Shown: positions 1-11,840 of the stretch, in pieces
How positions within the stretch are numbered: position 1 is the stretch's first letter
Layout: every line of letters starts with the position of its first letter
Origin: Candidatus Thorarchaeota archaeon
Lineage (GTDB): Archaea; Asgardarchaeota; Heimdallarchaeia; Hodarchaeales; Hodarchaeaceae
NCBI GenBank assembly: GCA_048882505.1
Contig: JBHLRO010000024.1
Span: 1 to 32,000 of the forward strand
Reading direction: 5' to 3'
DNA: 32,000 bases
Program-made: the position numbers and the translations under genes
Notes under the pieces: model-generated
Seen by the model: only the letters and a program-made list of their open reading frames with translations
What the model was told of the DNA's origin: nothing
The model's database searches: none

Positions 1-1977
1 AACTACACGGACATCCCATTGTGTGAGAGGGGCTATAAGACGGGGTTTACCTATATTGTATACCACTTGAAGCTGGTGGAGAGGATAACTTTCGATTGGT
101 CTGTTCAACGGACGTTTGACCTTGAGGGTGGGGATGGAGCCTTTGACGATCGTGGCTTTATCCTCCCCAGACAGGAGTATCCCCAAAGGGCGGTAATTGA
201 ATACAATATTCGAGGAACTGTCTGCCAGTTTTTGTAGGTGCACATTCCATAAAGTAGTATCAACCAAAGATAATGTTTTTTTGGGATAGCTTTTGGGAGC
301 AAAAAGTGGATAAGGACGACCTTTCGAAGCAATGGTTAGTTTTTGTTCCTGTTCCTCATAAGTAAACTCTACACCTTCTTTGATCGACACATAATCTGAT
401 CGTCCTAGGATTACACTAAAAGGATTATCTGGATGAGGAACAAAGGTTTGCTGCTTATCTAGTCTTGGTACCTGTTCCGGTGGCTGGAATAGATATTCTT
501 TTGCTAAGCTGCTTAGATGGGGATCTATCGTATTCAAATCGTAGGTTATAGAATGTTCATCTGATAACTGACAGATATATTTTCCTTCCTGCGCCATTTC
601 TCTGGAAAGAAACGAGTACTGCGTCTTGCATCGACAAGTCACAGTTTTACTGGTCGTGGGTAGTTCGCTCAGAGGAGTGTAACACCGTACACATCTGGCC
701 TCCGTTGAATGGGGAGGAAATAATGCCACATTTTCAGGGATTCTTGGTGCCCAGAATAGACAGGCAACATACCGAGACGAAATTGGTCGAATTCTTTCCT
801 CATATATCGGAATGACGGGAATTGGTATATCTTCATCTCGAGTGATATGGCTTTTCTTCTCCAAATACTCCAGTTTTTTAAAAAAAACACAATCATACTT
901 CGTGCGTTTTGAGAAATACACACAGCTCTGACAGGTAAACTGCAAGTGATTTGCTTGGTGGACTAGTCGGGAATAATGGGATTTACAAGTGGTAGTAAAG
1001 ACGAGTACTCGACGTTTCCGCGGTGCCTTAAACTTGAGCTTTTGAAAACGTAAATTTTGACGAATATAATTAATGGCATCAAAAGCACTCAACTTGATTG
1101 TATTTAGCTCACGTAGATATGGGTTCCTGTCAAGAAAGGTTTTTTCTCGGCTCGTAAGCGGCCTCTCCATCACCCAAGTAACGGTACGCATGTATTGGGA
1201 GACGCTCACTTTGGTTCCTTGGGCTGCTTCTCGGGCACACTCAAGAATGTCAAGATAGAGAAGACCAGGTTGTGAATCAGGATGGAGTTTAGATTTAGAG
1301 ACCAACCACTGATAGATCGTAATTATAACTTCTGCTAGGAGCACCCCACGTTTCATTTCATGAGGACCAGGAAGAGAAAAGGGTTCCTTTGGGGGATCCC
1401 TCAATGATCTATATTTGGAATATTTCTTTACCATTCTCCCAGCTTGAGTATGCTTATACATGGCCTGAAGTTTCTCATTGATTATTGGTTGAATTTCTTC
1501 AAGTAATGTTGATTTATTCTCACTCCACCCAAAAGCCCGAAATAAAACCTCTTGAAAGAGTCGGAGTTGTCGTGCAGCGAACTCCCGTTTCATTGTGTTA
1601 ATATACCATTCACAGCTCAGGACAACTAAGCGTTGGAAATCAGTATAATTGATTTGTTTACTTGTGAATTTTTCCTCAGTTCGTCTTATTCCTGAGCTTA
1701 CTTGAAGTTTAGCGATATGATTAATGTAATCCGCACAATTCAACCCGTGGGCTCGAAAATATTTTCCAAGTATCGAGGTTTGATAGTACTTTCGTTTTAA
1801 CAGGCCGCTCAAACGCAAGATTTTGACGAGTCGCAGGATTTCTGACGGGAGTTCACCTTGGCATTTCAACAAATCCTTGAGATAAGCTTCGAAAACTGGT
1901 TTGGGTTGAATCTGATACCCTATCTCGAAAATGCCCTGGATCAGACCTTCATCTAGTGAAGGAATGGAATCTTGCAT
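1..1977 (-). CDS. Large multidomain protein, partial (659 codons visible, runs off the left edge); putative highly diverged Cas1-family integrase with Zn-binding clusters
   Basis: Hand translation of the minus strand from ATG 1977 (MQDSIPSLDEGLIQ...) gives no stop down to base 1, which is why the ORF track misses it. Motifs: E168 (TLLEEIQPIINEKLQAMY), RSLRDPPKEPF (190-200), LH232...LYLD243ILE246CAR. This matches the Cas1 R..RPP.DP and LH...L.LD..E..R pattern and spacing. Cys clusters C349/352/363/406 and C429/432/448/450. CDS is solid; the Cas1 call is about 0.55. Confidence 0.85.
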   Translation of the reverse strand, partial: MQDSIPSLDEGLIQGIFEIGYQIQPKPVFEAYLKDLLKCQGELPSEILRLVKILRLSGLLKRKYYQTSILGKYFRAHGLNCADYINHIAKLQVSSGIRRTEEKFTSKQINYTDFQRLVVLSCEWYINTMKREFAARQLRLFQEVLFRAFGWSENKSTLLEEIQPIINEKLQAMYKHTQAGRMVKKYSKYRSLRDPPKEPFSLPGPHEMKRGVLLAEVIITIYQWLVSKSKLHPDSQPGLLYLDILECAREAAQGTKVSVSQYMRTVTWVMERPLTSREKTFLDRNPYLRELNTIKLSAFDAINYIRQNLRFQKLKFKAPRKRRVLVFTTTCKSHYSRLVHQANHLQFTCQSCVYFSKRTKYDCVFFKKLEYLEKKSHITRDEDIPIPVIPIYEERIRPISSRYVACLFWAPRIPENVALFPPHSTEARCVRCYTPLSELPTTSKTVTCRCKTQYSFLSREMAQEGKYICQLSDEHSITYDLNTIDPHLSSLAKEYLFQPPEQVPRLDKQQTFVPHPDNPFSVILGRSDYVSIKEGVEFTYEEQEQKLTIASKGRPYPLFAPKSYPKKTLSLVDTTLWNVHLQKLADSSSNIVFNYRPLGILLSGEDKATIVKGSIPTLKVKRPLNRPIESYPLHQLQVVYNIGKPRLIAPLTQWDVRVV

Positions 1978-2253
1978 AAAAGCCCTCAGATACTCCTGTT
2001 TGAATATAAATCATAAATCCAACGCTTTTTTATTATTTTAAAGTATTATAAAGGGATATATGATTTATTCTATATAGAATTAAATTGCTAAAAAAGGTAT
2101 CTATGAATATTAATAAAAAAGTTTTGGTAGATTTTTCTGCATCAACGTTACAGGAGATCCCTGTCCCACTGTGGATACTATTCAATAGATATAATAATCA
2201 CAGCACGACCAAACTAAGAGGACAATCATTAAATTCTTTGGAAGTAATCAAAG
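1978..2253. promoter_or_regulatory. AT-rich divergent promoter region between the Cas1-like gene and the RAMP operon
   Basis: Very AT-rich with TATA-like runs. Inverted pair ATAAATCATA (2006-2015) / TATGATTTAT (2059-2068) and perfect palindrome ATTCTATATAGAAT (2067-2080). Confidence 0.55.
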
Positions 2254-2709
2254 ATGAATTTAAAGTCCAATAAACCGCATCCCGTAAGCTTTGCATCTAT
2301 GACCTGGCAAGAGCTGGCAGTCAAGCAACTATTAGTCAGGGAAGACATCCCGTTTGTCCAGCAGAAAAAAATCACACTGGGGGGCTGTCATATGATCCTG
2401 GATTTTGAGATTGGCGGAGAAATTCTGCTAGAAGTGTCTGCTACGCGCATGCATCGCCACGGAGTGAGTCTGAAACTGAAAGCACTCCAAATTGAAGCCA
2501 AGTATGCCCGGATCAAAAAGGAACATACCTATCAATTGTGGGTATTGTTTGAATCGAGGCGAAGAGTCCATCGGCGACTCTTCAATACGCTTCAACGTCG
2601 AATGCCTTCTGCTGACCTACTACTTACTTCTCGACGGCAGCTCAGAAAAAGCTTGCGATCGGTATTTCTCGCTGAATATCGACAAAAGGGAGTGCCTCAG
2701 CATGTCTAA
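2254..2709 (+). CDS. PD-(D/E)XK restriction-endonuclease-fold protein (DUF559/Vsr-like)
   Basis: WQELAVKQLL..DIPFVQQKKI..ILDFEIGGEILLEVSA fits the E-helix / D-F / E-V pattern of this fold. Stop overlaps the ATG of the next gene (CATGTCTAA). Confidence 0.65.
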   Translation: MNLKSNKPHPVSFASMTWQELAVKQLLVREDIPFVQQKKITLGGCHMILDFEIGGEILLEVSATRMHRHGVSLKLKALQIEAKYARIKKEHTYQLWVLFESRRRVHRRLFNTLQRRMPSADLLLTSRRQLRKSLRSVFLAEYRQKGVPQHV

Positions 2710-3595
2710 GAAATCAGGTCAAAAGCCGTCTCAGAGAGTCAGGTTTCTGAATGGACCACGAAAGATCTTGAAATTCTGGTGCCATACACCCATTGCCAAA
2801 CCCCTCAATGGAGCGGCCCCGAAAAGCAAGAGTTCATACATGTTGAAACTCGTCCCCGTGTCCTACTCATATGAAGGAAATGCCAAGGTAAATGGAAAAA
2901 CCCAGAAGGTCACTAAAACATCCACTGCGGACAGTTATCTCATTAAAGGCCTACGTGGCGCCCTTCGACACAAAGTGATGGCGTTATGTTATGAAGCAGG
3001 GTTAGACGTCTGCCATACTTCCGATAAGCTGGAAGATAAACATCAAAATTCCCTCATCCCACCAGGGTTCCATCCGTTAGGGGAGTGTGCAACAAATGGC
3101 GAGAGCTGCATCATCCACCAAATCTTTGGCTCCATAAGGCACGCTAGTATTATCTCCGTTTCTGCCCCCCCAATCATCCGTTTCATAGAAAAATCCGCTC
3201 AATTGACGGCAACGGTCCAGCAAGTCCATATGGCCACCGAAAACCGTACGTGTATGAGTTTTGATCAAAGACCTATCCAAGACTTTTCGGAATCATACCT
3301 GAGCGGGACCTTTGCGTTTGAAGTCGATGTGACCTTGTGTACCCCAGAACAACTGGGCTTGCTCATCGAAGCCGGGTATCAATTGGAGAAACTTGGTCGA
3401 GGTTATAACTCGGGGTATGGACATCTTTACGTTCGCAAGTTTCAACTTCACAGAAAAACAAAGAAACGAGTGATTAAGACGGTTAAGGAGGAATTTGTGG
3501 TTCATGAACAGGTGTCAGAAGAACCCCTGAACCATGAGGTACCCCAGGCCTTGGGGGCCTGGGCACAGTATCGGGAGGAGCATAGGTGCAATTAA
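2702..3595 (+). CDS. cas7: Cas7-group RAMP (Csm3/Csf2-like backbone subunit), 297 aa
   Basis: IKGLRGALRH (RAMP s.kGalR motif), C..C..CIIHQIFGS (Zn / +FG motif), C-terminal G-rich loop LEKLGRGYNSGYGHL. Start moved from 2492 to ATG 2702, which overlaps the upstream stop by 8 nt. Confidence 0.8.
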   Translation: MSKKSGQKPSQRVRFLNGPRKILKFWCHTPIAKPLNGAAPKSKSSYMLKLVPVSYSYEGNAKVNGKTQKVTKTSTADSYLIKGLRGALRHKVMALCYEAGLDVCHTSDKLEDKHQNSLIPPGFHPLGECATNGESCIIHQIFGSIRHASIISVSAPPIIRFIEKSAQLTATVQQVHMATENRTCMSFDQRPIQDFSESYLSGTFAFEVDVTLCTPEQLGLLIEAGYQLEKLGRGYNSGYGHLYVRKFQLHRKTKKRVIKTVKEEFVVHEQVSEEPLNHEVPQALGAWAQYREEHRCN

Positions 3596-4407
3596 GTCTT
3601 GAAGGCCAGATCTTGACTCCAATCGTAACGAAGAGAACATTCTTTCATCTCATGGGGTGTCAGTTTCGCATCCTACGGCCTCGGCGACGCTATTACACAA
3701 AAATTACGGTGGGTAAACCCATGTACCCCTACTCCTTCATCTGTTACCTTGGAAGCCTCCAAGTTACGTATTCCTGTAAAACCAAAACTCAGGCGAAACG
3801 GAAACTAATTAGCCTCCTCAAGATCGAATCAATCGGGCGTTTCAGTAGCGAAGGAATGGGAAAGATTCAATGGGAAACGGGGCGAATTCGCCAAAATAGG
3901 TGTTTCTTTCAACGGAAAAGATATTCCAAGATTCGGATACGGCAAGGGCTCCCCCAGTACTTACCCCCGCTCGCGCTCAGATTGATCAGGTACGGATTAC
4001 TTCACGATTTTGTCCATACGTCCAGACATCCCTCCAAAATTTATGTTGAACCTCAAGTCAAGGAGGTAGATCTGTTGCGACGACATCATGACCTCACTGA
4101 TGACCCATTTATTCGACGATTCCAGCAATATGATCGGTTGGCATCTCGAATTACCCGTCGGATCAAGTCTCCTCGCCAAAACCGCTACAATTGGCAGTCT
4201 AACCAGACCCTGGACTTTGAAAAACTCGCGACTGAAATTACAGAGGTAGCCAACAAGTCGGTCTGGAAACTCTACCACTACATCTATGAATCCACGGAAC
4301 TGGCCCAACTCACTGAAAGCCTGCAGTTTGGACATACATCCCTGCGCTACCATCTCCTCCTCATAGCTAATTTGATCGTGCGAGACTTTCAACCTCGCGG
4401 GAGTTGA
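3586..4407 (+). CDS. Cas5-like RAMP fused to an HD nuclease domain (Cas10-type circular permutation)
   Basis: GTG start after GGAGG, 10-nt overlap with cas7. N-terminal LEGQILTPIV and G-loop SIGRFSSEGMGKIQW. C-terminal LLH140D141, H167H168, YD183RLAS, then TSLRYH256LLLIANL. Confidence 0.72.
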   Translation: MQLSLEGQILTPIVTKRTFFHLMGCQFRILRPRRRYYTKITVGKPMYPYSFICYLGSLQVTYSCKTKTQAKRKLISLLKIESIGRFSSEGMGKIQWETGRIRQNRCFFQRKRYSKIRIRQGLPQYLPPLALRLIRYGLLHDFVHTSRHPSKIYVEPQVKEVDLLRRHHDLTDDPFIRRFQQYDRLASRITRRIKSPRQNRYNWQSNQTLDFEKLATEITEVANKSVWKLYHYIYESTELAQLTESLQFGHTSLRYHLLLIANLIVRDFQPRGS

Positions 4408-4410
4408 AAC
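4386..4410 (+). repeat. Single CRISPR-repeat-like palindrome overlapping the Cas5-HD stop codon
   Basis: CTTTCAACCTCGCGGGAGTTGAAAC: TTTCAAC/GTTGAAA arms and a 3' GTTGAAAC end. No exact second copy seen. Confidence 0.35.
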
Positions 4411-4421
4411 CCTTGCACACC

Positions 4422-4495
4422 CCTGTCATAGTGTTCCGTTGGTTTGACGACGAAAGCAGAAGAGCTGGAGTCAAACTGCCCAAGGGCTATGCAGG
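4422..4495 (+). ncRNA. Candidate structured RNA or terminator: long imperfect hairpin in the Cas5-HD / wHTH intergenic gap
   Basis: CCTG(T)CATAG pairs with CTATGCAGG, TCC(G)TTG with CAAGGG, and GTTTGAC with GTCAAAC; about 22 bp in total, read by eye. Confidence 0.4.
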
Positions 4496-4507
4496 TATTA
4501 TCATGAT

Positions 4508-4528
4508 GTCATATACAATTAATATGAC
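4508..4528. promoter_or_regulatory. Palindromic operator-like site upstream of the wHTH gene
   Basis: GTCATAT-acaatta-ATATGAC, perfect 7-bp arms overlapping a TATA-like AT run, 26 bp before ATG 4555. Confidence 0.45.
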
Positions 4529-4554
4529 TCTGATTTTCTTAAGATCCGAGATCA

Positions 4555-4863
4555 ATGGCATCAAATCAACTAGTCCACGACTCGATGGTGACGAAAAGAA
4601 AGGAACGGAGACCGCCCCAACTGCCAGGGGTGCCAGAGAGAGAGAAAAAGGCAATAGTTCATGAGCTGGATCGCAATATTTATGCGATTCTAAGGCGAGA
4701 AGGGCCGTTGACCCGCTCTAATCTGGTATCACTGACAGGGATAGCACGAACAACATTATATGACAGTCTCCTGAGGCTAATTGTGAAAGGCTACGTGACA
4801 CGGTTCTCAGAGGAACGCAAAGAACGTGGGCGTCCGAAAGTCTTCTTTCAAGCAACGGGATAG
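4555..4863 (+). CDS. Winged helix-turn-helix (TrmB-like) DNA-binding protein
   Basis: LDRNIYAILRREGPLTRSNLVSLTGIARTTLYDSLLRLIVKGYV...RGRPKVFF: classic archaeal wHTH with RGRP wing. Confidence 0.85.
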   Translation: MASNQLVHDSMVTKRKERRPPQLPGVPEREKKAIVHELDRNIYAILRREGPLTRSNLVSLTGIARTTLYDSLLRLIVKGYVTRFSEERKERGRPKVFFQATG

Positions 4864-4868
4864 GCGTG

Positions 4869-5033
4869 GTTTAAATCTAACGGCATTTTAAAGTAGTTGC
4901 CGTGGGAAGTCCCTGAATATGACGGGATTTTAAGAATCCGCTTCTGTATTTCACGTTTTTCTCTCTAGAACGGGTTTTTTTCTGTTGTTTTTTATTCGGT
5001 GTTTTGATCCCGAGAATAAAGGGATTATTGAAC
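4869..5033. repeat. Cluster of degenerate direct repeats and small hairpins downstream of the RAMP locus
   Basis: ACGGCATTTTAA (4880), ACGGGATTTTAA (4922), ACGGGTTTTT (4970), AGGGATTATTGAA (5020). Two TCCC-..GAATA..-GGGA hairpins near 4910 and 5008. Confidence 0.35.
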
Positions 5034-5481
5034 CGTAAAATCATTGAATGTATTCAGCACGACTGCCCCTGCCCAACACAGATAGGTGAGAAGGGACCGC
5101 CATTCAAAGATTGCGGCATTTTTAAAGATTTCACCTCCCACCAACGTCGTCAATGCGAACACTAGGTCAATAAATGGAACGAAAAATCCCCAATAACCAG
5201 CTATTTTACTGCTATGGGGAAGAGAAAATAGGAACCCAATAGTGAATATTAAAACGGGGAAAAAAGTAAGATAGATCAAAAACTGAAGAGAAAATGAAAC
5301 GGAAAGTTGACAGATTCCAAAAAACGCCACTCATGGCAATCATGATGCCATTGATTTTACACCGAATCTTCGCTTGAGTATCCTTAGATACCAGGGTCAA
5401 TATAAGATGGCAAAATAGCTGGGTAGTACAAAGGTACCTCGACAAGCAGCATGGCCACAATACGATAGTTAGGGGAACCAC
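5025..5481 (-). pseudogene. Probable frameshifted or decayed multi-pass membrane protein gene
   Basis: Two overlapping hydrophobic ORF fragments in different frames (5212..5481 and 5025..5330) with no clean start. Could also be sequencing error or spurious ORFs. Confidence 0.3.
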
Positions 5482-5838
5482 CGTTCTCTTGCGAGGGATA
5501 GCGGGATTCGAAACGAGCAGTATCCATGCTTATGGCATCCCATAATATCAGTTTTTTTTTGATATCTGAATGTAGCCAAGAGTCTAAAGATATGGCGAAA
5601 TCAAGAGCTTAGAAGGGATCAAATTATCTGGATAGGATGTTGATCATCTTCAAAATGATGATATCCCTGTATTGGGATTCAAAATAGGTTCCAACAGTAG
5701 GGGAGGCAAAAAACAATGTAGAGGTGTCGGAGCTGGAAGATCTGGGCCGTTTTTAAAAGGACTTTATAAGGCGACAAAAAGCTATTTATGATTCAGACTC
5801 GAACTCAATGATGTCAGTAGGATTCGGAGAGAAGTGAG

Positions 5839-7380
5839 GTGGTGAAAACCCGTGAATCCATTAAGAAGTCGATTTCAACAATCTTACAGCAGCTTTCTCT
5901 TCGAACCAGCGCCTATCCACCACCTGAACAGAAAAGGTTGGATGAATTACTAGAACTAATCGGTCATTACGAAGAGGCGGACTTTAGTAGAAATAAATTA
6001 GTATTACGGTTTGTTAAATATAGTGAGGGGACTTTTAAAGATGAAGAGTATCTTGGGCTTCCATTCTTATGGTTTAGTGGTACCTACTCTCAAAATGCAA
6101 AAGTGTTACTAGAACATTCCAAGTTTCATGCAATATCGTTCTATGAATTCTTAGCAAAGCATTTGCGGGGGATATTTCGTCTAGTAAACCGTTTAGAACC
6201 CTTATCTTCGATTTTATGGGAAGATTTACAATACGAAGCCAATAAATTACTCCAATATCTAACGAAAAGAGATATAGAGACTTTAAAGGTGGAATTTCGA
6301 CTTTTAAAAGAAAAAGGAGTAATTACACTAAATACACGCCAGCAAAGAGAATATATTGGGGAATATATCGAGTTTTTCAAGGACGAGACACCTTTTGTTG
6401 AGCTGAAACGTTTATTTTCTGTCGTAAACGGAAAATGGATGCTCCAATTCTTCTCCCCTGCTTTTGATCTAAGTCGTGTACTATTTCAATTCAAGATTCT
6501 CGATTCAATTCCTTTGAGTGATATAATAGACTTTTCAAATCGTAAAAACTCCACATTGACTATAAGCGATATCTACAACACGCGCGAAGATCCAAACCGA
6601 TATCTAGGATTTTTCTTTGTTCCAATTAATTGTGTTTCTGACCTTAAGACATATCTTCAGAAAATTCAGAAGAGTGGGCATATAATACTGGAAAAATATT
6701 CTTCAGTAACCGATGTTCGGAAGAATATTTCGCTACGACTTTATCAACCAGGAAGAGGCTGGCAAAACACCAGTACAACTTACCTATCTAAGTTAAAACG
6801 AATTATATTATCAATTGGACCTGACGAGCTAGAACAACAACCAAGTAGTTATCAAGATGACCTTTATATCCCTAATGCAATGAACAAAAGATGGAGCTAT
6901 CGTGATCATCCTCTTCCTCATCGATTGATAAAGTTGGTCTGTAAAATGGCAAAGGAGTTCTCCTTCATGGATTTTCCCATTGACTCTGATAGGTTAAATA
7001 AGCCGAACTCTCTCAGTATCGATCAGATCGGGCTCCTGAAACAATTATATTACAACAAAGTTGTGTATCCAGTTTTTATACCTTGGCAAATTATCGATGA
7101 ATTCTCGCTAGACAATTTCTGTGTATATATCCAGAAAATCCCATTTTCTAAGCTGGTAGAATTAATAAAAATTATCCCATTCAGTGAAGTATTTTCCACC
7201 GAAGAGTTTTTCTGCTTGTTTGGTAGATTAACACCACGACTAGTTAATTGGATTCGCTCAGATTTAGGTTGGAATGTCTATATGATCAGTAGAACACATA
7301 AAAAAGCTGCGCAGTTAAATTTTGCCTGGTTTAACAAAAGATCATTGACATGGGCGGTTCCAGAAGTTCTGGAATCTTAA
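5839..7380 (+). CDS. Hypothetical protein (513 aa), possibly with duplicated wHTH plus ferredoxin-like (Lrp/AsnC-like) halves
   Basis: Long ORF, GTG start within GAGGTG. The fold guess is weak and comes from two similar hydrophobic strand patterns (FFSPAFDLSRVLFQFKI; VFIPWQIIDEFSLDNFCVYI). Confidence 0.8.
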   Translation: MVKTRESIKKSISTILQQLSLRTSAYPPPEQKRLDELLELIGHYEEADFSRNKLVLRFVKYSEGTFKDEEYLGLPFLWFSGTYSQNAKVLLEHSKFHAISFYEFLAKHLRGIFRLVNRLEPLSSILWEDLQYEANKLLQYLTKRDIETLKVEFRLLKEKGVITLNTRQQREYIGEYIEFFKDETPFVELKRLFSVVNGKWMLQFFSPAFDLSRVLFQFKILDSIPLSDIIDFSNRKNSTLTISDIYNTREDPNRYLGFFFVPINCVSDLKTYLQKIQKSGHIILEKYSSVTDVRKNISLRLYQPGRGWQNTSTTYLSKLKRIILSIGPDELEQQPSSYQDDLYIPNAMNKRWSYRDHPLPHRLIKLVCKMAKEFSFMDFPIDSDRLNKPNSLSIDQIGLLKQLYYNKVVYPVFIPWQIIDEFSLDNFCVYIQKIPFSKLVELIKIIPFSEVFSTEEFFCLFGRLTPRLVNWIRSDLGWNVYMISRTHKKAAQLNFAWFNKRSLTWAVPEVLES

Positions 7381-8415
7381 GGAAAAAATAAAAGGGGAAA
7401 TTAGCACTAATTCCTTTCACAATCCGCCAGTTGGACCATCATTTGGAGGCATCGTTTTTCACCTACAATTGAGGATGACAGGGCTTTTAATAGTCCCTAA
7501 GTTTGGAAATGCAGAGTCATTTTGTGTCATTTTCGGTTCTCTCTCCTTCTGATAAGAATAACAACAATCAAAGCCAATTAGAAAAGGATTTGAGTAATGA
7601 ATAGGAATATAAACGTAGAATTCGACAGATAGTCTTCTACAACTACCCTTAAAATCCCCAACTTTCTTGGCATGATTGTAAGAGTCTGATCTGGTATCCT
7701 CCAAGCATCCTCTCTGATTGAATCAGGAAGGGGTCTCAATGGCGGCCCTTAATCACCAGGATTTAACTTCTCCCCCAGAACAACCAACTGGACAGTAAAG
7801 GACAGTCAGGAATACCCCTCCTGATTCTTTTTTTTTATAATAAGTTATTGATCCATAATTTGACCATGCTTTTATAAATACCTTTCACTAGCATATAAAC
7901 TTCTCTATTCCTACCTACTGCATTAGATTACTTCATAATCTCCTTTTCTGATAGATCAGTTTTTTCAGGAATCATTTTAATTGATTTCTTCAAGGTTTTT
8001 TGAATATTAAGCATACTAGCGACAAAATTGGGATGTCTGTTCTTACTTTAGTATATCATTCCAAATCTAGGCATTCAATGGCTTCTTGATAAACACAGTC
8101 CAAACCGTATCCAGAATTCAGTTTGTCATGAAGACAAAGATATGTAACTGAATCATTGGATGAAATAAAATGAAATGCTGATGGGGGAAAACATAATAAT
8201 ATTTGGGAAAAGGCTTAGATACTGTTATATTTATGGTAGGATAAGCCAGAGAATTTATAGAAAGCTGTTTACACTACCTCGATGAAAAAATCTTGAATTA
8301 AAGGCTTTTGAATTTTTATCATTCTCAAGATTTATGAAAAAAAAGCAGTTCATTCCCAAAGTTTCAGAAGCACATTCTGAACGTTACTGAAAAAAATCAA
8401 ACCCCATAACTTGAA
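7381..8415. other. Candidate replication origin (oriC) region
   Basis: About 1 kb without a convincing ORF, upstream of a co-oriented DUF6788-cdc6 pair next to DP1. AT-rich from ~7830 to 8400. G-string-containing inverted elements at 7713-7733, 7772-7793 and 7815-7827. Confidence 0.4.
7720..7836. repeat. 14-bp inverted repeat pair (one bulge) enclosing 79 bp, followed by a 9-T run
   Basis: GAATCAGGA(A)GGGGT at 7720-7734 versus ACCCCTCCTGATTC at 7814-7827; T run at 7828-7836. Confidence 0.8.
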
Positions 8416-8772
8416 ATGACTGTTGTTCTGAGAAACATGGCGTCCATAATTGCAAAGTGGCAGAAATGTGGTAAATCTACGTGCCGCTGCAAATCGGGGG
8501 CACTGCACGGGCCCTACTTTTGGTTAATCACGTACGTGTCTAGGAAAGCAGAACATCCGCAAAAGGGGCGGTACAGCTGGAAGTACCTGGGCAAACATCC
8601 TGAAACCGCGTGGATCCGACTTAAAGAAATCGATGAGCGTTTCGATCAACAATATGATCTACAGGATCTAAAGAACAAAATAACGGATATGATACAGATC
8701 CGAAAAGTTCAAAGAGACATTTCGGTTACTGAACCGGTTTTGGTTGTGGATGAACCTGGTTTGAACCATTGA
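8416..8772 (+). CDS. DUF6788-like small Zn-binding protein
   Basis: KCGKSTCRCKSGALHGPYFWL and YLGK are the hallmark motifs of this family. Confidence 0.75.
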   Translation: MTVVLRNMASIIAKWQKCGKSTCRCKSGALHGPYFWLITYVSRKAEHPQKGRYSWKYLGKHPETAWIRLKEIDERFDQQYDLQDLKNKITDMIQIRKVQRDISVTEPVLVVDEPGLNH

Positions 8773-8958
8773 ACATTAGGGTCTATTTTGGCCGCTATAC
8801 GATGCGTACATCCGAGAATGGCCCAAATTTTCTAGGGGACCCCGACGAAATAATACCATGGTGTGTTAATGATTCTTATATGTACAGTGGAAATAGAGCC
8901 ATTGCGAATGGAACCCGTGGATCGGGTAGCCTTCAACGGTCGGTTATGAGGAATTCAA

Positions 8959-10215
8959 ATGGCACAATTAGACCGCACGTCAGGGGATAGAAATCGTGAA
9001 GAACCGGAGGTCACGTTAGACGATATTTTTGAAGGATATTTGAAGCAACCCAAGCTGTTCACCAACCGCGATGCGCTTGAGAGTTCGTTTGTCCCAGAAA
9101 ACTTACCCCACCGGACTGAACAAATCAAACAGCTCGGATATATCCTAGCATCGGTGCTTCGTGGGGCCAAACCGAGCAATATCCTGTGTTTTGGGAAAAC
9201 TGGCACAGGGAAAACGGCCGTCTCTAAATATGTCTTGAATAGTTTGGGGAAAAAGGCACCACAGCATGGCCTAAGAATTGAAGTAGCATATATGAACTGT
9301 AATTCCGTTGACACTAATTATCGGGTTTTCGCGGACTTATGCAGTTCCTTGGGGGTTGAGGTGCCATTTACTGGGCTTGCCACGGATGAAGTATTTACAC
9401 GGTTCAAACGGGGTTTAGATCAGCGGCATTCATTGTTTATTGTCGTTCTTGACGAAATTGATTCGTTGGTGAAAAAATCAGGGAATGAAACCCTTTACAA
9501 TCTAACCCGTATTAATACTGATCTCACCAGAGCCAAAGTGAGTCTAATTGGGATCTCGAATGACCTGAAGTTTAAAGAATACCTGGATCCTAGGGTACTT
9601 TCCTCGTTGTCGGAGGAGGAGATTGTTTTCAAACCTTATGAGGCACCTGAAATTATGGATATTCTGATCGACCGTGCAAAGTTGGCGTTCAAAGAAAATG
9701 TCCTATTGGAGGGGGTCCTCAATATGATTGCCGCGATCGCTGCCCAGGAACACGGTGACGCACGTCGGGCTATTGATCTGTTACGAGTATCTGCAGAAAC
9801 CGCGGAACGGGAAGGCAGTGAACAAATCCTTCAAAGACATGTCAAGATCGCCCAGGGTGCCATAGAGAGGAACACAATCACGGAAGTGTGTGCGTCTCTG
9901 CCACTCCAATCTAAGATAGTTATCTCTTCAATTTATCTCTTGGAGAGCACCCAGGAGACGTCTCAAACGGTGTCCACTGGTGATGTTTATGACGAATATG
10001 TCCGTTTGTGTCGAGAAACGGGGATGGATTCCCTAACACAACGTCGGGTAGGGGATCTCATTAATGAGCTTGACGCCCTAGGCATAATTAGTGCCCGAGT
10101 CGTTTCACGAGGACGTCATGGACGGACAAAAGAGATACGTATATCAGTACCCCGCCCGTTGGTGGCAAAAATATTGCGAGAAGACAAAATCATTGGAAAA
10201 AGGATAACCAACTAG
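8959..10215 (+). CDS. cdc6: Orc1/Cdc6 replication initiator
   Basis: F+PENLPHRTEQI, Walker A GKTGTGKT, Walker B VVLDEID, sensor GDARRAIDLLR, C-terminal wHTH with SRGRHGRTKEI. Confidence 0.97.
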   Translation: MAQLDRTSGDRNREEPEVTLDDIFEGYLKQPKLFTNRDALESSFVPENLPHRTEQIKQLGYILASVLRGAKPSNILCFGKTGTGKTAVSKYVLNSLGKKAPQHGLRIEVAYMNCNSVDTNYRVFADLCSSLGVEVPFTGLATDEVFTRFKRGLDQRHSLFIVVLDEIDSLVKKSGNETLYNLTRINTDLTRAKVSLIGISNDLKFKEYLDPRVLSSLSEEEIVFKPYEAPEIMDILIDRAKLAFKENVLLEGVLNMIAAIAAQEHGDARRAIDLLRVSAETAEREGSEQILQRHVKIAQGAIERNTITEVCASLPLQSKIVISSIYLLESTQETSQTVSTGDVYDEYVRLCRETGMDSLTQRRVGDLINELDALGIISARVVSRGRHGRTKEIRISVPRPLVAKILREDKIIGKRITN

Positions 10216-10268: not shown

Positions 10269-11840
10269 TTAGGAGGGAATTATACGCATTTTTCTAAGAT
10301 CGATCATGGTAATTTGACCAGTTTGGGTGTCTAAAATATGGACAACCCCTACTGATGTTTTCTGTGGGGTTTTCAAATGGTCTGGGCCCTTACCTTGAAA
10401 TGTACCACAAGCGATTATTTTGACTCCTTTGTACTCGGCCATTGATGCTTGGTGGCTGTGCCCGACCACGAGTATTTCTGGGACCCGATCAATGACAAGA
10501 TAGTCCCGTTTTGCAGGTACAAGCGGAATAGTGACTCCATACTCCGGAGCCAAATGCCGATATTCTAATAATTGTTGAATGCTCGAAATAGGATTGATCG
10601 GATCGAGTTGTTCAAGCCCTTGTCCATGGTAGACTAGGAGGTTCAGACCATCGATTATCACGCGAAGCGGGTTACCATGAGTGAGTACGTTCGGAAGGGA
10701 AAAAATCGAATTTCCTACTTCTCGATCAATAGCAGGCTGTGGTAAGGCCATTTGGGTGGCATCATGCTCTCCTGGGATTACTATTATCTGAATGTAAGAA
10801 GGAATTTTAGAGAATAGAGCTGATAAGCCATCATATTGAGCTTGAAGGGAAGATACACTCAAATTGGCTTGCTGGTCAGGAAATTGCCCAACTCCGTCAC
10901 AAAGATCCCCCGCAACAATAACAACTTTGATATCCTGGGCTATTGCAACCAGATCGGGGGGTAGGTCATCCAACTGAACCAATTTTACTAAGTTGGCAAA
11001 AGCCCGTGTGGCGAAAGATTTGGCCCCATAGTGAATATCTGCAAGAAACAAGATTTTTCCAGAACGGGGATTCTGTTGAAATCGGATAGGAGTGAGACCA
11101 GGCCGAATCACATCTTTTCCCCAAAAGGCAGTAATAGCTCCCTCCTCATACTTCTTGGGTAGATCTCCCGCAACCCCGATCACGGTATCACGGAGAATTT
11201 CGTGATACTCTGGAAAAGATGTACTCTCTTGAACCATGACACATCGAGTAAGTATTTCATCAGTAGGATCTTCTAACTGGATAACAAACTTACCCGTATG
11301 TAATACCCCCGTATCTTGCACCATCCCAATCAAGATTCCGCTTTTGTCAAGAGGAACTTCCTGTATCGTCAGATTTCGGCCAAGAATCCGTCCTTGATCT
11401 GTTAGTTGATCCCTTATGATTCTTGAGAGTCGCTGAAACCTGTCAAGAAACAAATTCCGAAACGTGTCAACGTCGACGGGATCAGAAAGGGAAGTCGGGA
11501 TATCGAGATCAATAACAATTTCGGGTAGAGAGGGGGGTTTCTTTGGAGCAGAGAGTTGAGGTGTTTGTGTTGTTGAAATCTGGCCAGAATTAGTGGTTGA
11601 TAAGACTTGCTCTGTAGAAGCTATTTCACGATCTTTTGATATCTCAGAATTGTGTTTAGTTGTCGCCAAGACTTCCTGAATGACAGGGACGGTTACAACA
11701 GGGATTTCTTGAGGTAATTGGGAAACCAGAGTCTTTATTTGGCTTTTGGAGAGGGAACTGTTTCTTAGATAATCGAGAACCTCGCCTGTGACATTGAACC
11801 TGTGTTTCAAGAACAGAGCGATTAGTTCACCTCGATCCAT
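10269..11840 (-). CDS. polB: DNA polymerase D small subunit DP1 (OB fold plus calcineurin-like phosphoesterase), diverged
   Basis: F+DRF.RL motif; OB fold LIGMVQD..IQLEDPT; motifs DIHYG, AGDLCDGVG, PGEHD, YHG, GHSH; HLAP.YG. Symbol is the archaeal DP1 (polD1) usage. Confidence 0.88.
   Translation of the reverse strand: MDRGELIALFLKHRFNVTGEVLDYLRNSSLSKSQIKTLVSQLPQEIPVVTVPVIQEVLATTKHNSEISKDREIASTEQVLSTTNSGQISTTQTPQLSAPKKPPSLPEIVIDLDIPTSLSDPVDVDTFRNLFLDRFQRLSRIIRDQLTDQGRILGRNLTIQEVPLDKSGILIGMVQDTGVLHTGKFVIQLEDPTDEILTRCVMVQESTSFPEYHEILRDTVIGVAGDLPKKYEEGAITAFWGKDVIRPGLTPIRFQQNPRSGKILFLADIHYGAKSFATRAFANLVKLVQLDDLPPDLVAIAQDIKVVIVAGDLCDGVGQFPDQQANLSVSSLQAQYDGLSALFSKIPSYIQIIVIPGEHDATQMALPQPAIDREVGNSIFSLPNVLTHGNPLRVIIDGLNLLVYHGQGLEQLDPINPISSIQQLLEYRHLAPEYGVTIPLVPAKRDYLVIDRVPEILVVGHSHQASMAEYKGVKIIACGTFQGKGPDHLKTPQKTSVGVVHILDTQTGQITMIDLRKMRIIPS

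Follow-up and report, generated by a model that had tools for sequence, protein, structure and literature searches.

According to two reviews, ARAMP loci are array-less, CRISPR-like and derived from type III systems; they encode homologues of Cas5 and Cas7 together with nucleases, often of the HNH or PD-(D/E)xK kind, most of them also carry a distinct Cas1, and some Cas1 homologues of Asgard archaea may belong to new mobile elements (PMC8730458, PMC12669027). One of these reviews describes the haloarchaeal HRAMP loci, which are array-less, combine diverged Cas5 and Cas7 with assorted nucleases and are predicted to act in non-canonical defence, and states that Csf1, the large subunit of type IV-C systems, has a Cas10-related C-terminal HD domain (PMC8730458). 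We analysed a locus at the left end of a stretch of 32,000 nucleotides (the window) from an Asgard metagenome-assembled genome (MAG; Candidatus Thorarchaeota archaeon, assembly GCA_048882505.1, contig JBHLRO010000024.1, here C24:1-32000; other contigs are numbered in the same way). In this locus a very large Cas1-like gene diverges from a short operon for a small possible nuclease (P2nuc), a Cas7-like RAMP protein and a Cas5-HD fusion, followed by a structured RNA-like element and a winged-helix gene. The locus is a further member of the ARAMP class. The Cas7-like protein is predicted to bind the RAMP domain of Cas5-HD, and the element, which shows compensatory changes across related loci, may be the RNA partner of the cassette.

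ARAMP reportedly goes back to Makarova et al. 2020, CRISPR J 3:156, and HRAMP is said to go back to Makarova et al. 2019, FEMS Microbiol Lett; the two reviews are later work of the same group. An initial annotation of the window, made from its letters alone, had supposed that the class might already have a name, which is the case. The genome of Heimdallarchaeota B3_Heim, a congener of the source genome that carries the same cassette, was public before the 2020 paper. No experimental study of ARAMP was found in the literature accessible to this analysis; the class was named from genome analysis.

Results

Comparison with described systems

The features of ARAMP that we tested are found at this locus: the host is an Asgard archaeon, Cas7 and Cas5 are diverged (Cas5 is recognised at the fold level and is nearest to Csm4 and Csf3), and there is no array at the locus, whose contig is cut on the left. 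Because of these features, and because B3_Heim has the same cassette, we assign the locus to this class, and none of our observations speaks against that. Its distinct, very divergent Cas1 is present as a family, of which this copy is assembled only as the N-terminal 659 and the last 90 amino acids. As for nucleases, the HD domain has all of its invariant His and Asp residues, and the PD-(D/E)XK match of P2nuc is weak. The closest relatives in the class have a gene of about 240 codons and no winged-helix gene, whereas this copy lacks the former and has the latter in addition.

HRAMP resembles the locus in being array-less and in having diverged Cas5 and Cas7 and nucleases, but it belongs to haloarchaea, is distantly related, and has no Cas1 mentioned in the two reviews. 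Type III (Csm/Cmr) systems share with it the Cas7 backbone, a Csm4/Cmr3-type Cas5 and a Cas10-type HD domain. They differ in that positions 1-4863 hold no Cas10 Palm/cyclase domain and no other large subunit, only an HD-like domain of about 147 amino acids fused to Cas5, and in that no array and no Cas11, Cas6 or cyclic oligoadenylate signalling genes were found at the locus. In type III complexes Cas5 directly contacts Cas10, so a Cas5::HD fusion is a plausible vestige. Type IV-C is likewise a reduced type III derivative with Cas7, Cas5 and a Cas10-like HD domain. Here, however, the HD domain sits on Cas5 and not on a large subunit, a Cas1 homologue is present, and there is no array; the locus proteins gave no match to Csf1 or DinG in Pfam, NCBIfam or PADLOC, in searches that were not aimed at Csf1.

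A predicted complex of Cas7 and Cas5-HD

The window starts at base 1 of its contig and could not be extended leftward directly; the MAG comprises 4.3 Mb in 83 contigs and is 94.5% complete. Positions 1-4863 contain the five open reading frames (ORFs) and the divergent operon drawn by the initial annotation, with overlaps of 8 nucleotides (2702-2709) and 10 nucleotides (3586-3595) between consecutive plus-strand ORFs, and every ORF of the cassette in the window is intact. The starts of cas7 (ATG 2702) and cas5-HD (GTG 3586) agree with the N-termini of homologues, and the two genes, with their overlapping reading frames, are taken to be co-transcribed. An AT-rich intergenic region of 276 nucleotides (1978-2253) separates the two arms and presumably holds the promoters of both transcription units. 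The same divergent layout around an intergenic region was seen in B3_Heim, Logan contig L025, G190 and G211.

The product of 2702-3595 (+), 297 amino acids, has weak direct matches to Pfam RAMPs (E 0.014) and PADLOC Csm3 (E 1e-3). Its 74 homologues are all from Asgard archaea, and many of them match PF03787; in Atlas it scores 0.96 to Heimdall RAMP clusters, with structural template-modelling (TM) scores of 0.60-0.69. The family has a C-terminal glycine-rich loop, an invariant Cys/His cluster (C104, H105, H124, C129 and C136) and an invariant G232. On these comparisons the protein is identified as a diverged Cas7 RAMP, as the initial annotation had proposed.

The 273-residue product of 3586-4407 (+) has 113 homologues, all Asgard and none with a Pfam family, and matched no sequence family; its Cas5 identity exists at the fold level only. 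The AF2 model (predicted local distance difference test, pLDDT, 89.3) has two domains. Residues 1-110 adopt a RAMP fold, for which all 50 of the top 50 Foldseek matches were CRISPR RAMPs. In the structural comparison (VIA) this domain is closest to Csm4 (9g9a_G, Z 8.6, root-mean-square deviation 3.2, 107 residues aligned) and Csf3 (7xfz_B, Z 8.3), followed by the Cas5 proteins of types I-A, I-D and VII (Z 6.9-7.5). Residues 127-273 matched only the N-terminal HD domain of Csm1/Cas10 (6ifk_A, Z 7.3, 133 aligned, 18% identity; 6mua_A, Z 6.8). This second match is credible because the H140-D141 dyad lies about 14 residues into the domain, the alignment begins at Csm1 residue 1-2, and H140, D141, H168, H250 and H256 are invariant in 48 Cas5-HD sequences. 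We therefore side with the initial call of a Cas5-like protein with an HD domain, and from the model we read the protein as a Cas5 fused to the last remnant of Cas10.

A two-chain model of Cas7 with Cas5-HD gave an ipSAE of 0.79, against 0.00 for the best control; of 80 solved complexes 58 came up to this mark, compared with 2 of 110 mismatched pairs. At least 83% of the contacts were common to the model runs, and the partner pLDDT was at least 75. This result supports an interface between Cas7 and the RAMP domain of Cas5-HD, but resemblance to Cas5-Cas7 complexes of known structure may account for part of the score. Each of the two proteins has 22-24 invariant columns across 42-48 diverged sequences, the HD residues among them.

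A covarying element downstream of cas5-HD

The gap between cas5-HD and the winged-helix ORF measures 147 nucleotides. Within it, an element of 113 nucleotides (4433-4545, +) starts 26 nucleotides after the cas5-HD stop codon and ends 9 nucleotides before the winged-helix start. The 200 nucleotides that follow cas5-HD were aligned from 19 loci, and the trimmed alignment retained 8 of them, from Loki, Heimdall and G041 genomes. The element that they share combines a conserved CCGTTG box and an 8-bp stem with a conserved purine-rich loop, a second hairpin of variable sequence and a tail that reads CCTTAAG. In the window, 4441-4448 pair with 4470-4477. Stem cells were paired at 95.3%, compared with 59.7% in shuffles (0 of 500 as high) and 30-52% in slid controls, and seven of the eight stem pairs show compensatory changes. 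RNAalifold arrived at the same stem independently, as did a single-sequence fold of the window copy (z -1.6). With blastn alone, the DNA downstream of cas5-HD gave no connection between the window and other loci; the link appears only in the multiple alignment and in the covariance model, R1.

R1 detected seven copies of the element in this genome, five of them outside the training set, compared with one or two intact effector pairs. At least three of these five adjoin 3' fragments of Cas5-HD. The extra copies lie at C2:70782-70883, C27:18208-18309(-), C2:93299-93399, C2:384435-384528 and C28:17778-17880, and several stand beside only the last 30-110 or so codons of a decayed cas5-HD. Matches were found in 15 of the 22 genomes of the genus: in 15 of the 17 with Cas5-HD and in none of the four without it, the genomes being related and not independent samples. 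At least 16 non-training matches follow a cas5-HD gene, or a fragment of one, at a distance of 25-40 nucleotides and in the same orientation. Since R1 matches once and on one strand per locus, in the window and at related loci, the element is not a terminal inverted repeat (TIR). R1 does not detect the variants of G041 and of family f7. In the same place G041 has its own non-coding block of 130-180 nucleotides after cas5-HD that is 76-88% conserved, compared with 65-73% for the genes, and is partly repeated between cas7 and cas5-HD. The element at 4433-4545 may be the RNA partner of the cassette.

The large Cas1 and its missing end

The minus-strand gene at 1-1977 is open to base 1, where the contig start cuts it, and contributes 659 codons. 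It is 38% identical to a full-length paralogue of 983 amino acids on C16 and 32% to a B3_Heim protein of 993 amino acids, and it spans positions 10-659 of the 981 in the family hidden Markov model (HMM). The family is rare, with five 90%-identity clusters and 33 representatives by profile. The 659 window residues found no match in Pfam, NCBIfam, PADLOC or PDB and nothing usable in Atlas, the N-terminal 330 or so residues have no detectable relative, and a profile of the C-terminal part found none in sequence searches; the identity of the family came only from a fold search. One distant member matches Pfam Cas1 at E 0.003.

Over the last 340 or so residues, all full-length members share an E, an H and a D, and nearly all an N; H and D are 13 residues apart, which is also the spacing in E. 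coli Cas1. The AF2 model of the C-terminal 350 or so residues of the family (pLDDT 89.7, predicted TM score 0.88) matched A. fulgidus Cas1 in Foldseek at E 2e-7. By VIA, the top 12 matches of this domain were all Cas1, led by A. fulgidus Cas1 (4n06_B, Z 21.4), the Cas1 of a Cas6-RT-Cas1 fusion (Z 20.8) and the casposase 6opm (Z 20.5); the next match had Z 6.2. The modelled fold thus places the family unambiguously as Cas1 of about 980 amino acids with an N-terminal extension of about 640 residues that includes conserved Cys clusters. The initial annotation was right in calling the gene Cas1-like at the level of the family. The part in the window, however, holds almost no Cas1 domain: it consists of the extension and the first 20 or so residues of the region modelled as Cas1. 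A companion reading, in which Cas1 was permuted (catalytic helices, then zinc clusters, then N-domain strands), was rejected, as the E/N/H/D set and an ordinary Cas1 fold are C-terminal and outside the window.

The last 90 codons of a family member (positions 888-975 and the stop) were found at the end of a 2.7-kb contig, at C82:2427-2699(-). Since the N-terminal part of the family occurs twice in the genome and so does the C-terminal part, the simplest reading is that C82 adjoins C24 on the left, across an expected gap of some 0.7 kb; about 228 codons, those for the catalytic residues among them, would be unassembled. Beyond the Cas1 end, C82 encodes a superfamily 2 (SF2) helicase of at least 715 amino acids, truncated where the contig begins. 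This probable neighbour carries neither a cas operon nor an array, whereas the initial annotation had considered one just to the left as a sign of an ordinary type III or IV variant.

Nucleases, helicases and the winged-helix protein

P2nuc (2254-2709, +, 151 amino acids) has homologues that adjoin the large Cas1 divergently at every same-genus locus. All members keep E20, D50 and E60, but E60 precedes x-S/T and the ExK lysine is missing. One of four members matches Phage_endo_I (E 0.005), and the profile found no match in PDB. P2nuc is thus a possible PD-(D/E)XK-like nuclease, a more guarded statement than the initial one, which had called it such a nuclease. Its identity as Cas4 was rejected, the family having neither conserved cysteines nor the ExK lysine. 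No HNH nuclease was seen at the locus.

A protein of about 990 amino acids that combines a helicase with a calcineurin-like phosphoesterase occurs near the large Cas1 on C82, C16, B3_Heim C21, L025 and G025, and one member of this helicase-metallophosphatase family has a weak Cas3-like C-terminal match. C16 itself (C16:14263-32700; locus L005 is C16:17000-36999) is a second large-Cas1 locus, without Cas7 and Cas5-HD. There the 983-residue paralogue is divergent from a protein of 1104 amino acids, whose first 135 or so residues match P2nuc and whose remainder matches no known family; the helicase-metallophosphatase gene lies at C16:14263-17187, and two genes for FtsX-type permeases lie in between. 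On B3_Heim C21, two paralogous genes for proteins of about 467 amino acids, which match no known family, flank the helicase-metallophosphatase gene (L076:2676-4076 and 7456-8862), and a relative lies about 4.5 kb from a Cas7/Cas5-HD pair of another Heimdall genome (L009:12965-14459).

The winged-helix gene (4555-4863, +, 102 amino acids) had been recognised as such by the initial annotation; it matches Pfam TrmB (5.4e-7) and HTH_24 (5.2e-5), NCBIfam Lrs14 (6.2e-7) and PADLOC Csa3 (E 0.009). No homologue was present at the 29 other related loci scanned. Its product may be a local regulator specific to the window locus.

Search for arrays and canonical cas genes

No tandem array was found in the window, in line with the initial annotation, nor any Rfam family, CRISPR repeats included, nor a tRNA. 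The whole assembly is also without a repeat-spacer array, which for a MAG of this completeness leaves absence from the organism unproven. Two three-copy candidates from the assembly-wide scan were rejected as tandem repeats in coding sequence. Likewise, no array was seen at about 30 related loci in scans with system HMMs and R1 and in DNA comparison of some of them, which included no dedicated repeat search. In this genome PF03787 matched at the cassette locus only, and a search for Cas6 (PF01881) gave no match.

A canonical cas1 (PF01867, E 9e-69) is present on C55:1-6798 (L006), with a cas2 that is cut by the contig start. The neighbours of this pair are a DUF2797-like gene, an RHH/DUF5678 gene and a Bax1 (DUF790)-XPB helicase pair. 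C55 has a GC content of 0.446, compared with about 0.41 for the genome, and may be mis-binned. An array may lie just past its edge.

Related loci and copy number

HMMs for the separate parts of the cassette were run over 26 distinct loci from at least 10 genomes. A Cas1-like gene stands 0.4-7 kb from the Cas7/Cas5-HD pair at 18 of them. Same-genus loci (B3_Heim twice, G190, G211 and L025) have the large Cas1 on the minus strand and genes for the 150-residue protein, a protein of about 240 residues, Cas7 and Cas5-HD on the plus strand. The gene for the 240-residue protein (L011:7273-8001 in B3_Heim; L025:2385-3101) has no Pfam family, and in its C-terminal half PIN-like motifs can be seen by eye (LLD..CD, LVTTNDRLL; D...T-x-D). 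The genome G041 has eight diverged copies (L057-L063), and in six a short Cas1-like gene immediately precedes the one for Cas7. In family f7 the Cas1-like gene is 6-7 kb off, some other copies are a Cas7/Cas5-HD pair alone, and around several of the copies examined some 8-9 kb are free of any Cas1-like gene.

Among 301 Asgard genomes, 37 encode Cas5-HD, in up to nine copies per genome. The named genomes with homologues of Cas7/Cas5-HD are from Heimdall, Hod, Hermod, Thor, Odin and Promethearchaeota only. The source genome has two large Cas1 genes, two Cas7 genes, two full Cas5-HD genes with additional fragments, and seven elements; its second pair, at C2:387419-388790, is partly broken, the damage being in Cas7. 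In B3_Heim the cassette adjoins Rpp14-p30-L15e, and the syntenic block on C15 of our genome has no cassette genes. The B3_Heim contig stops short of the far boundary, and exact ends or a target duplication are not readable there.

To the right of the cassette, an Orc1/Cdc6 gene lies at 8959-10215 of the window, adjoined at 10269-11840 by what we take to be the gene for the PolD small subunit. This region, a few kilobases away, may mark a replication-origin neighbourhood. The right-hand neighbour at 5839-7380 encodes 513 amino acids without a Pfam family; there are one to four copies of it per genome of the genus, 28-33% identical, and as a multi-copy family it was unusable as a synteny anchor.

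Discussion

The explanation we lean towards, by a small measure, is that this ARAMP member works as an RNA-protein nuclease. The mechanistic steps themselves are more tentative and fall somewhat short of probable. In this proposal, the RNA transcribed from the 3' element would bring together several Cas7 subunits and one Cas5-HD, whose Cas5 domain would hold the conserved box and stem in the way that Cas5 holds a repeat-derived handle. This complex would recognise nucleic acid of foreign origin, and its HD domain, the only part of Cas10 left, would cut DNA. P2nuc and the helicase-phosphoesterase would then degrade the target in a Cas3-like role. The least certain step is that of the large Cas1, for which insertion or renewal of DNA at the locus, be it the RNA gene or the module, is favoured over classical spacer capture, given that the locus has neither an array nor cas2. 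An improbable extension of this proposal is that the element is a dedicated RNA and that the giant Cas1 and the helicase-phosphoesterase write, renew or relocate RNA genes, with dispersed single RNA genes replacing an array. If it were true, this would be heritable nucleic-acid-guided immunity or mobility, with the seven elements beside two effectors serving as "memory".

Several observations weigh against the RNA-protein nuclease. The window copy of the element diverges in its 3' half and by itself folds modestly better than shuffles; its variable parts are base-paired stems, with no obvious single-stranded guide, and its role may be that of a scaffold, terminator or DNA site. The Cas7 alignment has no invariant Asp at the expected Csm3-type catalytic position, and the HD match, with Z of about 7, lies in a range that helical domains in general may reach. 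The catalytic part of this Cas1 copy falls in the assembly gap, and the window is without the gene for the 240-residue protein that stands between P2nuc and cas7 in the closest relatives. Many Cas5-HD copies in related genomes are pseudogenes, with stop codons or reduced to 3' fragments. Finally, the canonical cas1-cas2 pair on C55 may leave a supply of CRISPR RNA (crRNA) in trans.

The alternative that survives best, which we consider unlikely, is that Cas1 mobilises the cassette, which would itself be a mobile element like casposons or CRISPR-associated transposons (CAST) or be carried by one: Cas1 would be the integrase, the ribonucleoprotein would pick the site and the 3' element would be an end or attachment site. 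Such elements have in common with the locus a Cas1-fold integrase, here nearly as close to the casposase as to CRISPR Cas1, next to an interference-defective RAMP module in multiple copies at variable sites. The up to nine Cas5-HD copies per genome with their many decayed 3' fragments, the multi-copy state of Cas1, Cas7, Cas5-HD and the element in this genome (2/2/2/7), the cassette-free syntenic block on C15 and the Asgard Cas1 homologues that the reviews place in possible new mobile elements fit this idea. On the other side, the extension of about 640 residues sets this Cas1 apart from those of casposons and CAST, and no target duplications were found. The locus genes and the C82 helicase include no polB by Pfam, and neither the locus proteins nor that helicase belong to the TnsB, TnsC or TniQ families, a weak TniB match being the Orc1/Cdc6 gene. 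Positions 1-9000 contain only short TIR-like pairs at chance level (79-94% identity), the left boundary being unassembled, and the element itself occurs once, on one strand, per locus. Moreover, 8 of the 26 scanned copies are without a nearby Cas1-like gene, and the G041 copies, 65-87% identical in DNA, are old paralogues and not the outcome of recent transposition.

It is distinctly improbable that Cas7 and Cas5-HD are instead a trans-acting accessory effector, a reduced type III/IV-like module that uses the crRNAs of an array elsewhere. The canonical cas1-cas2 at the cut edge of C55, where arrays typically break assemblies, and the frequent loss of arrays from MAGs speak for it. Yet that contig may be mis-binned, the assembly has no array, Cas6 or other PF03787 RAMP, none of the related loci showed an array within the scope given above, and the cassette has its own tightly linked RNA-like element. 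Just as doubtful is a decaying type III relic, no longer a functional unit, with the 3' element only a terminator or mRNA-stability hairpin: the many broken or fragmentary relatives, the broken Cas7 of the second copy in this genome, the missing gene for the 240-residue protein and the position of the element just past a stop codon would suit it, but the ORFs of the window are all intact, both proteins keep their invariant columns, HD residues included, their interface is predicted with high confidence, and the element retains conserved unpaired boxes and a stem and persists beside decayed fragments, which is unexpected of a mere terminator.

As genome annotation, the locus is an ordinary further example of a catalogued class. 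This analysis adds the model of Cas7 binding to Cas5-HD, the link to the helicase-metallophosphatase, the covarying element, and the occurrence of multiple and decayed copies at differing sites; it also confirmed gene identities at the fold level, corrected the architecture of Cas1 and found C82 as the probable left neighbour. The helicase link, the 3' element and the reading of the fusion as Cas5::Cas10-HD may already be part of the 2020 ARAMP paper, and we do not claim novelty for them over it. How an array-less Cas7/Cas5 module works, and why it retains Cas1, are questions of CRISPR evolution, and the locus offers handles on them: a modelled Cas7-Cas5-HD pair with an intact HD site, a covarying RNA-like element, a helicase-phosphoesterase that possibly stands in for Cas3, and a Cas1 that carries a large extension with zinc clusters. 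Should the element prove to be the RNA that the cassette uses, the system would amount to a compact effector whose guide is fixed or changes slowly, and it would bear on how type III systems shrink into type IV-like or array-less forms.

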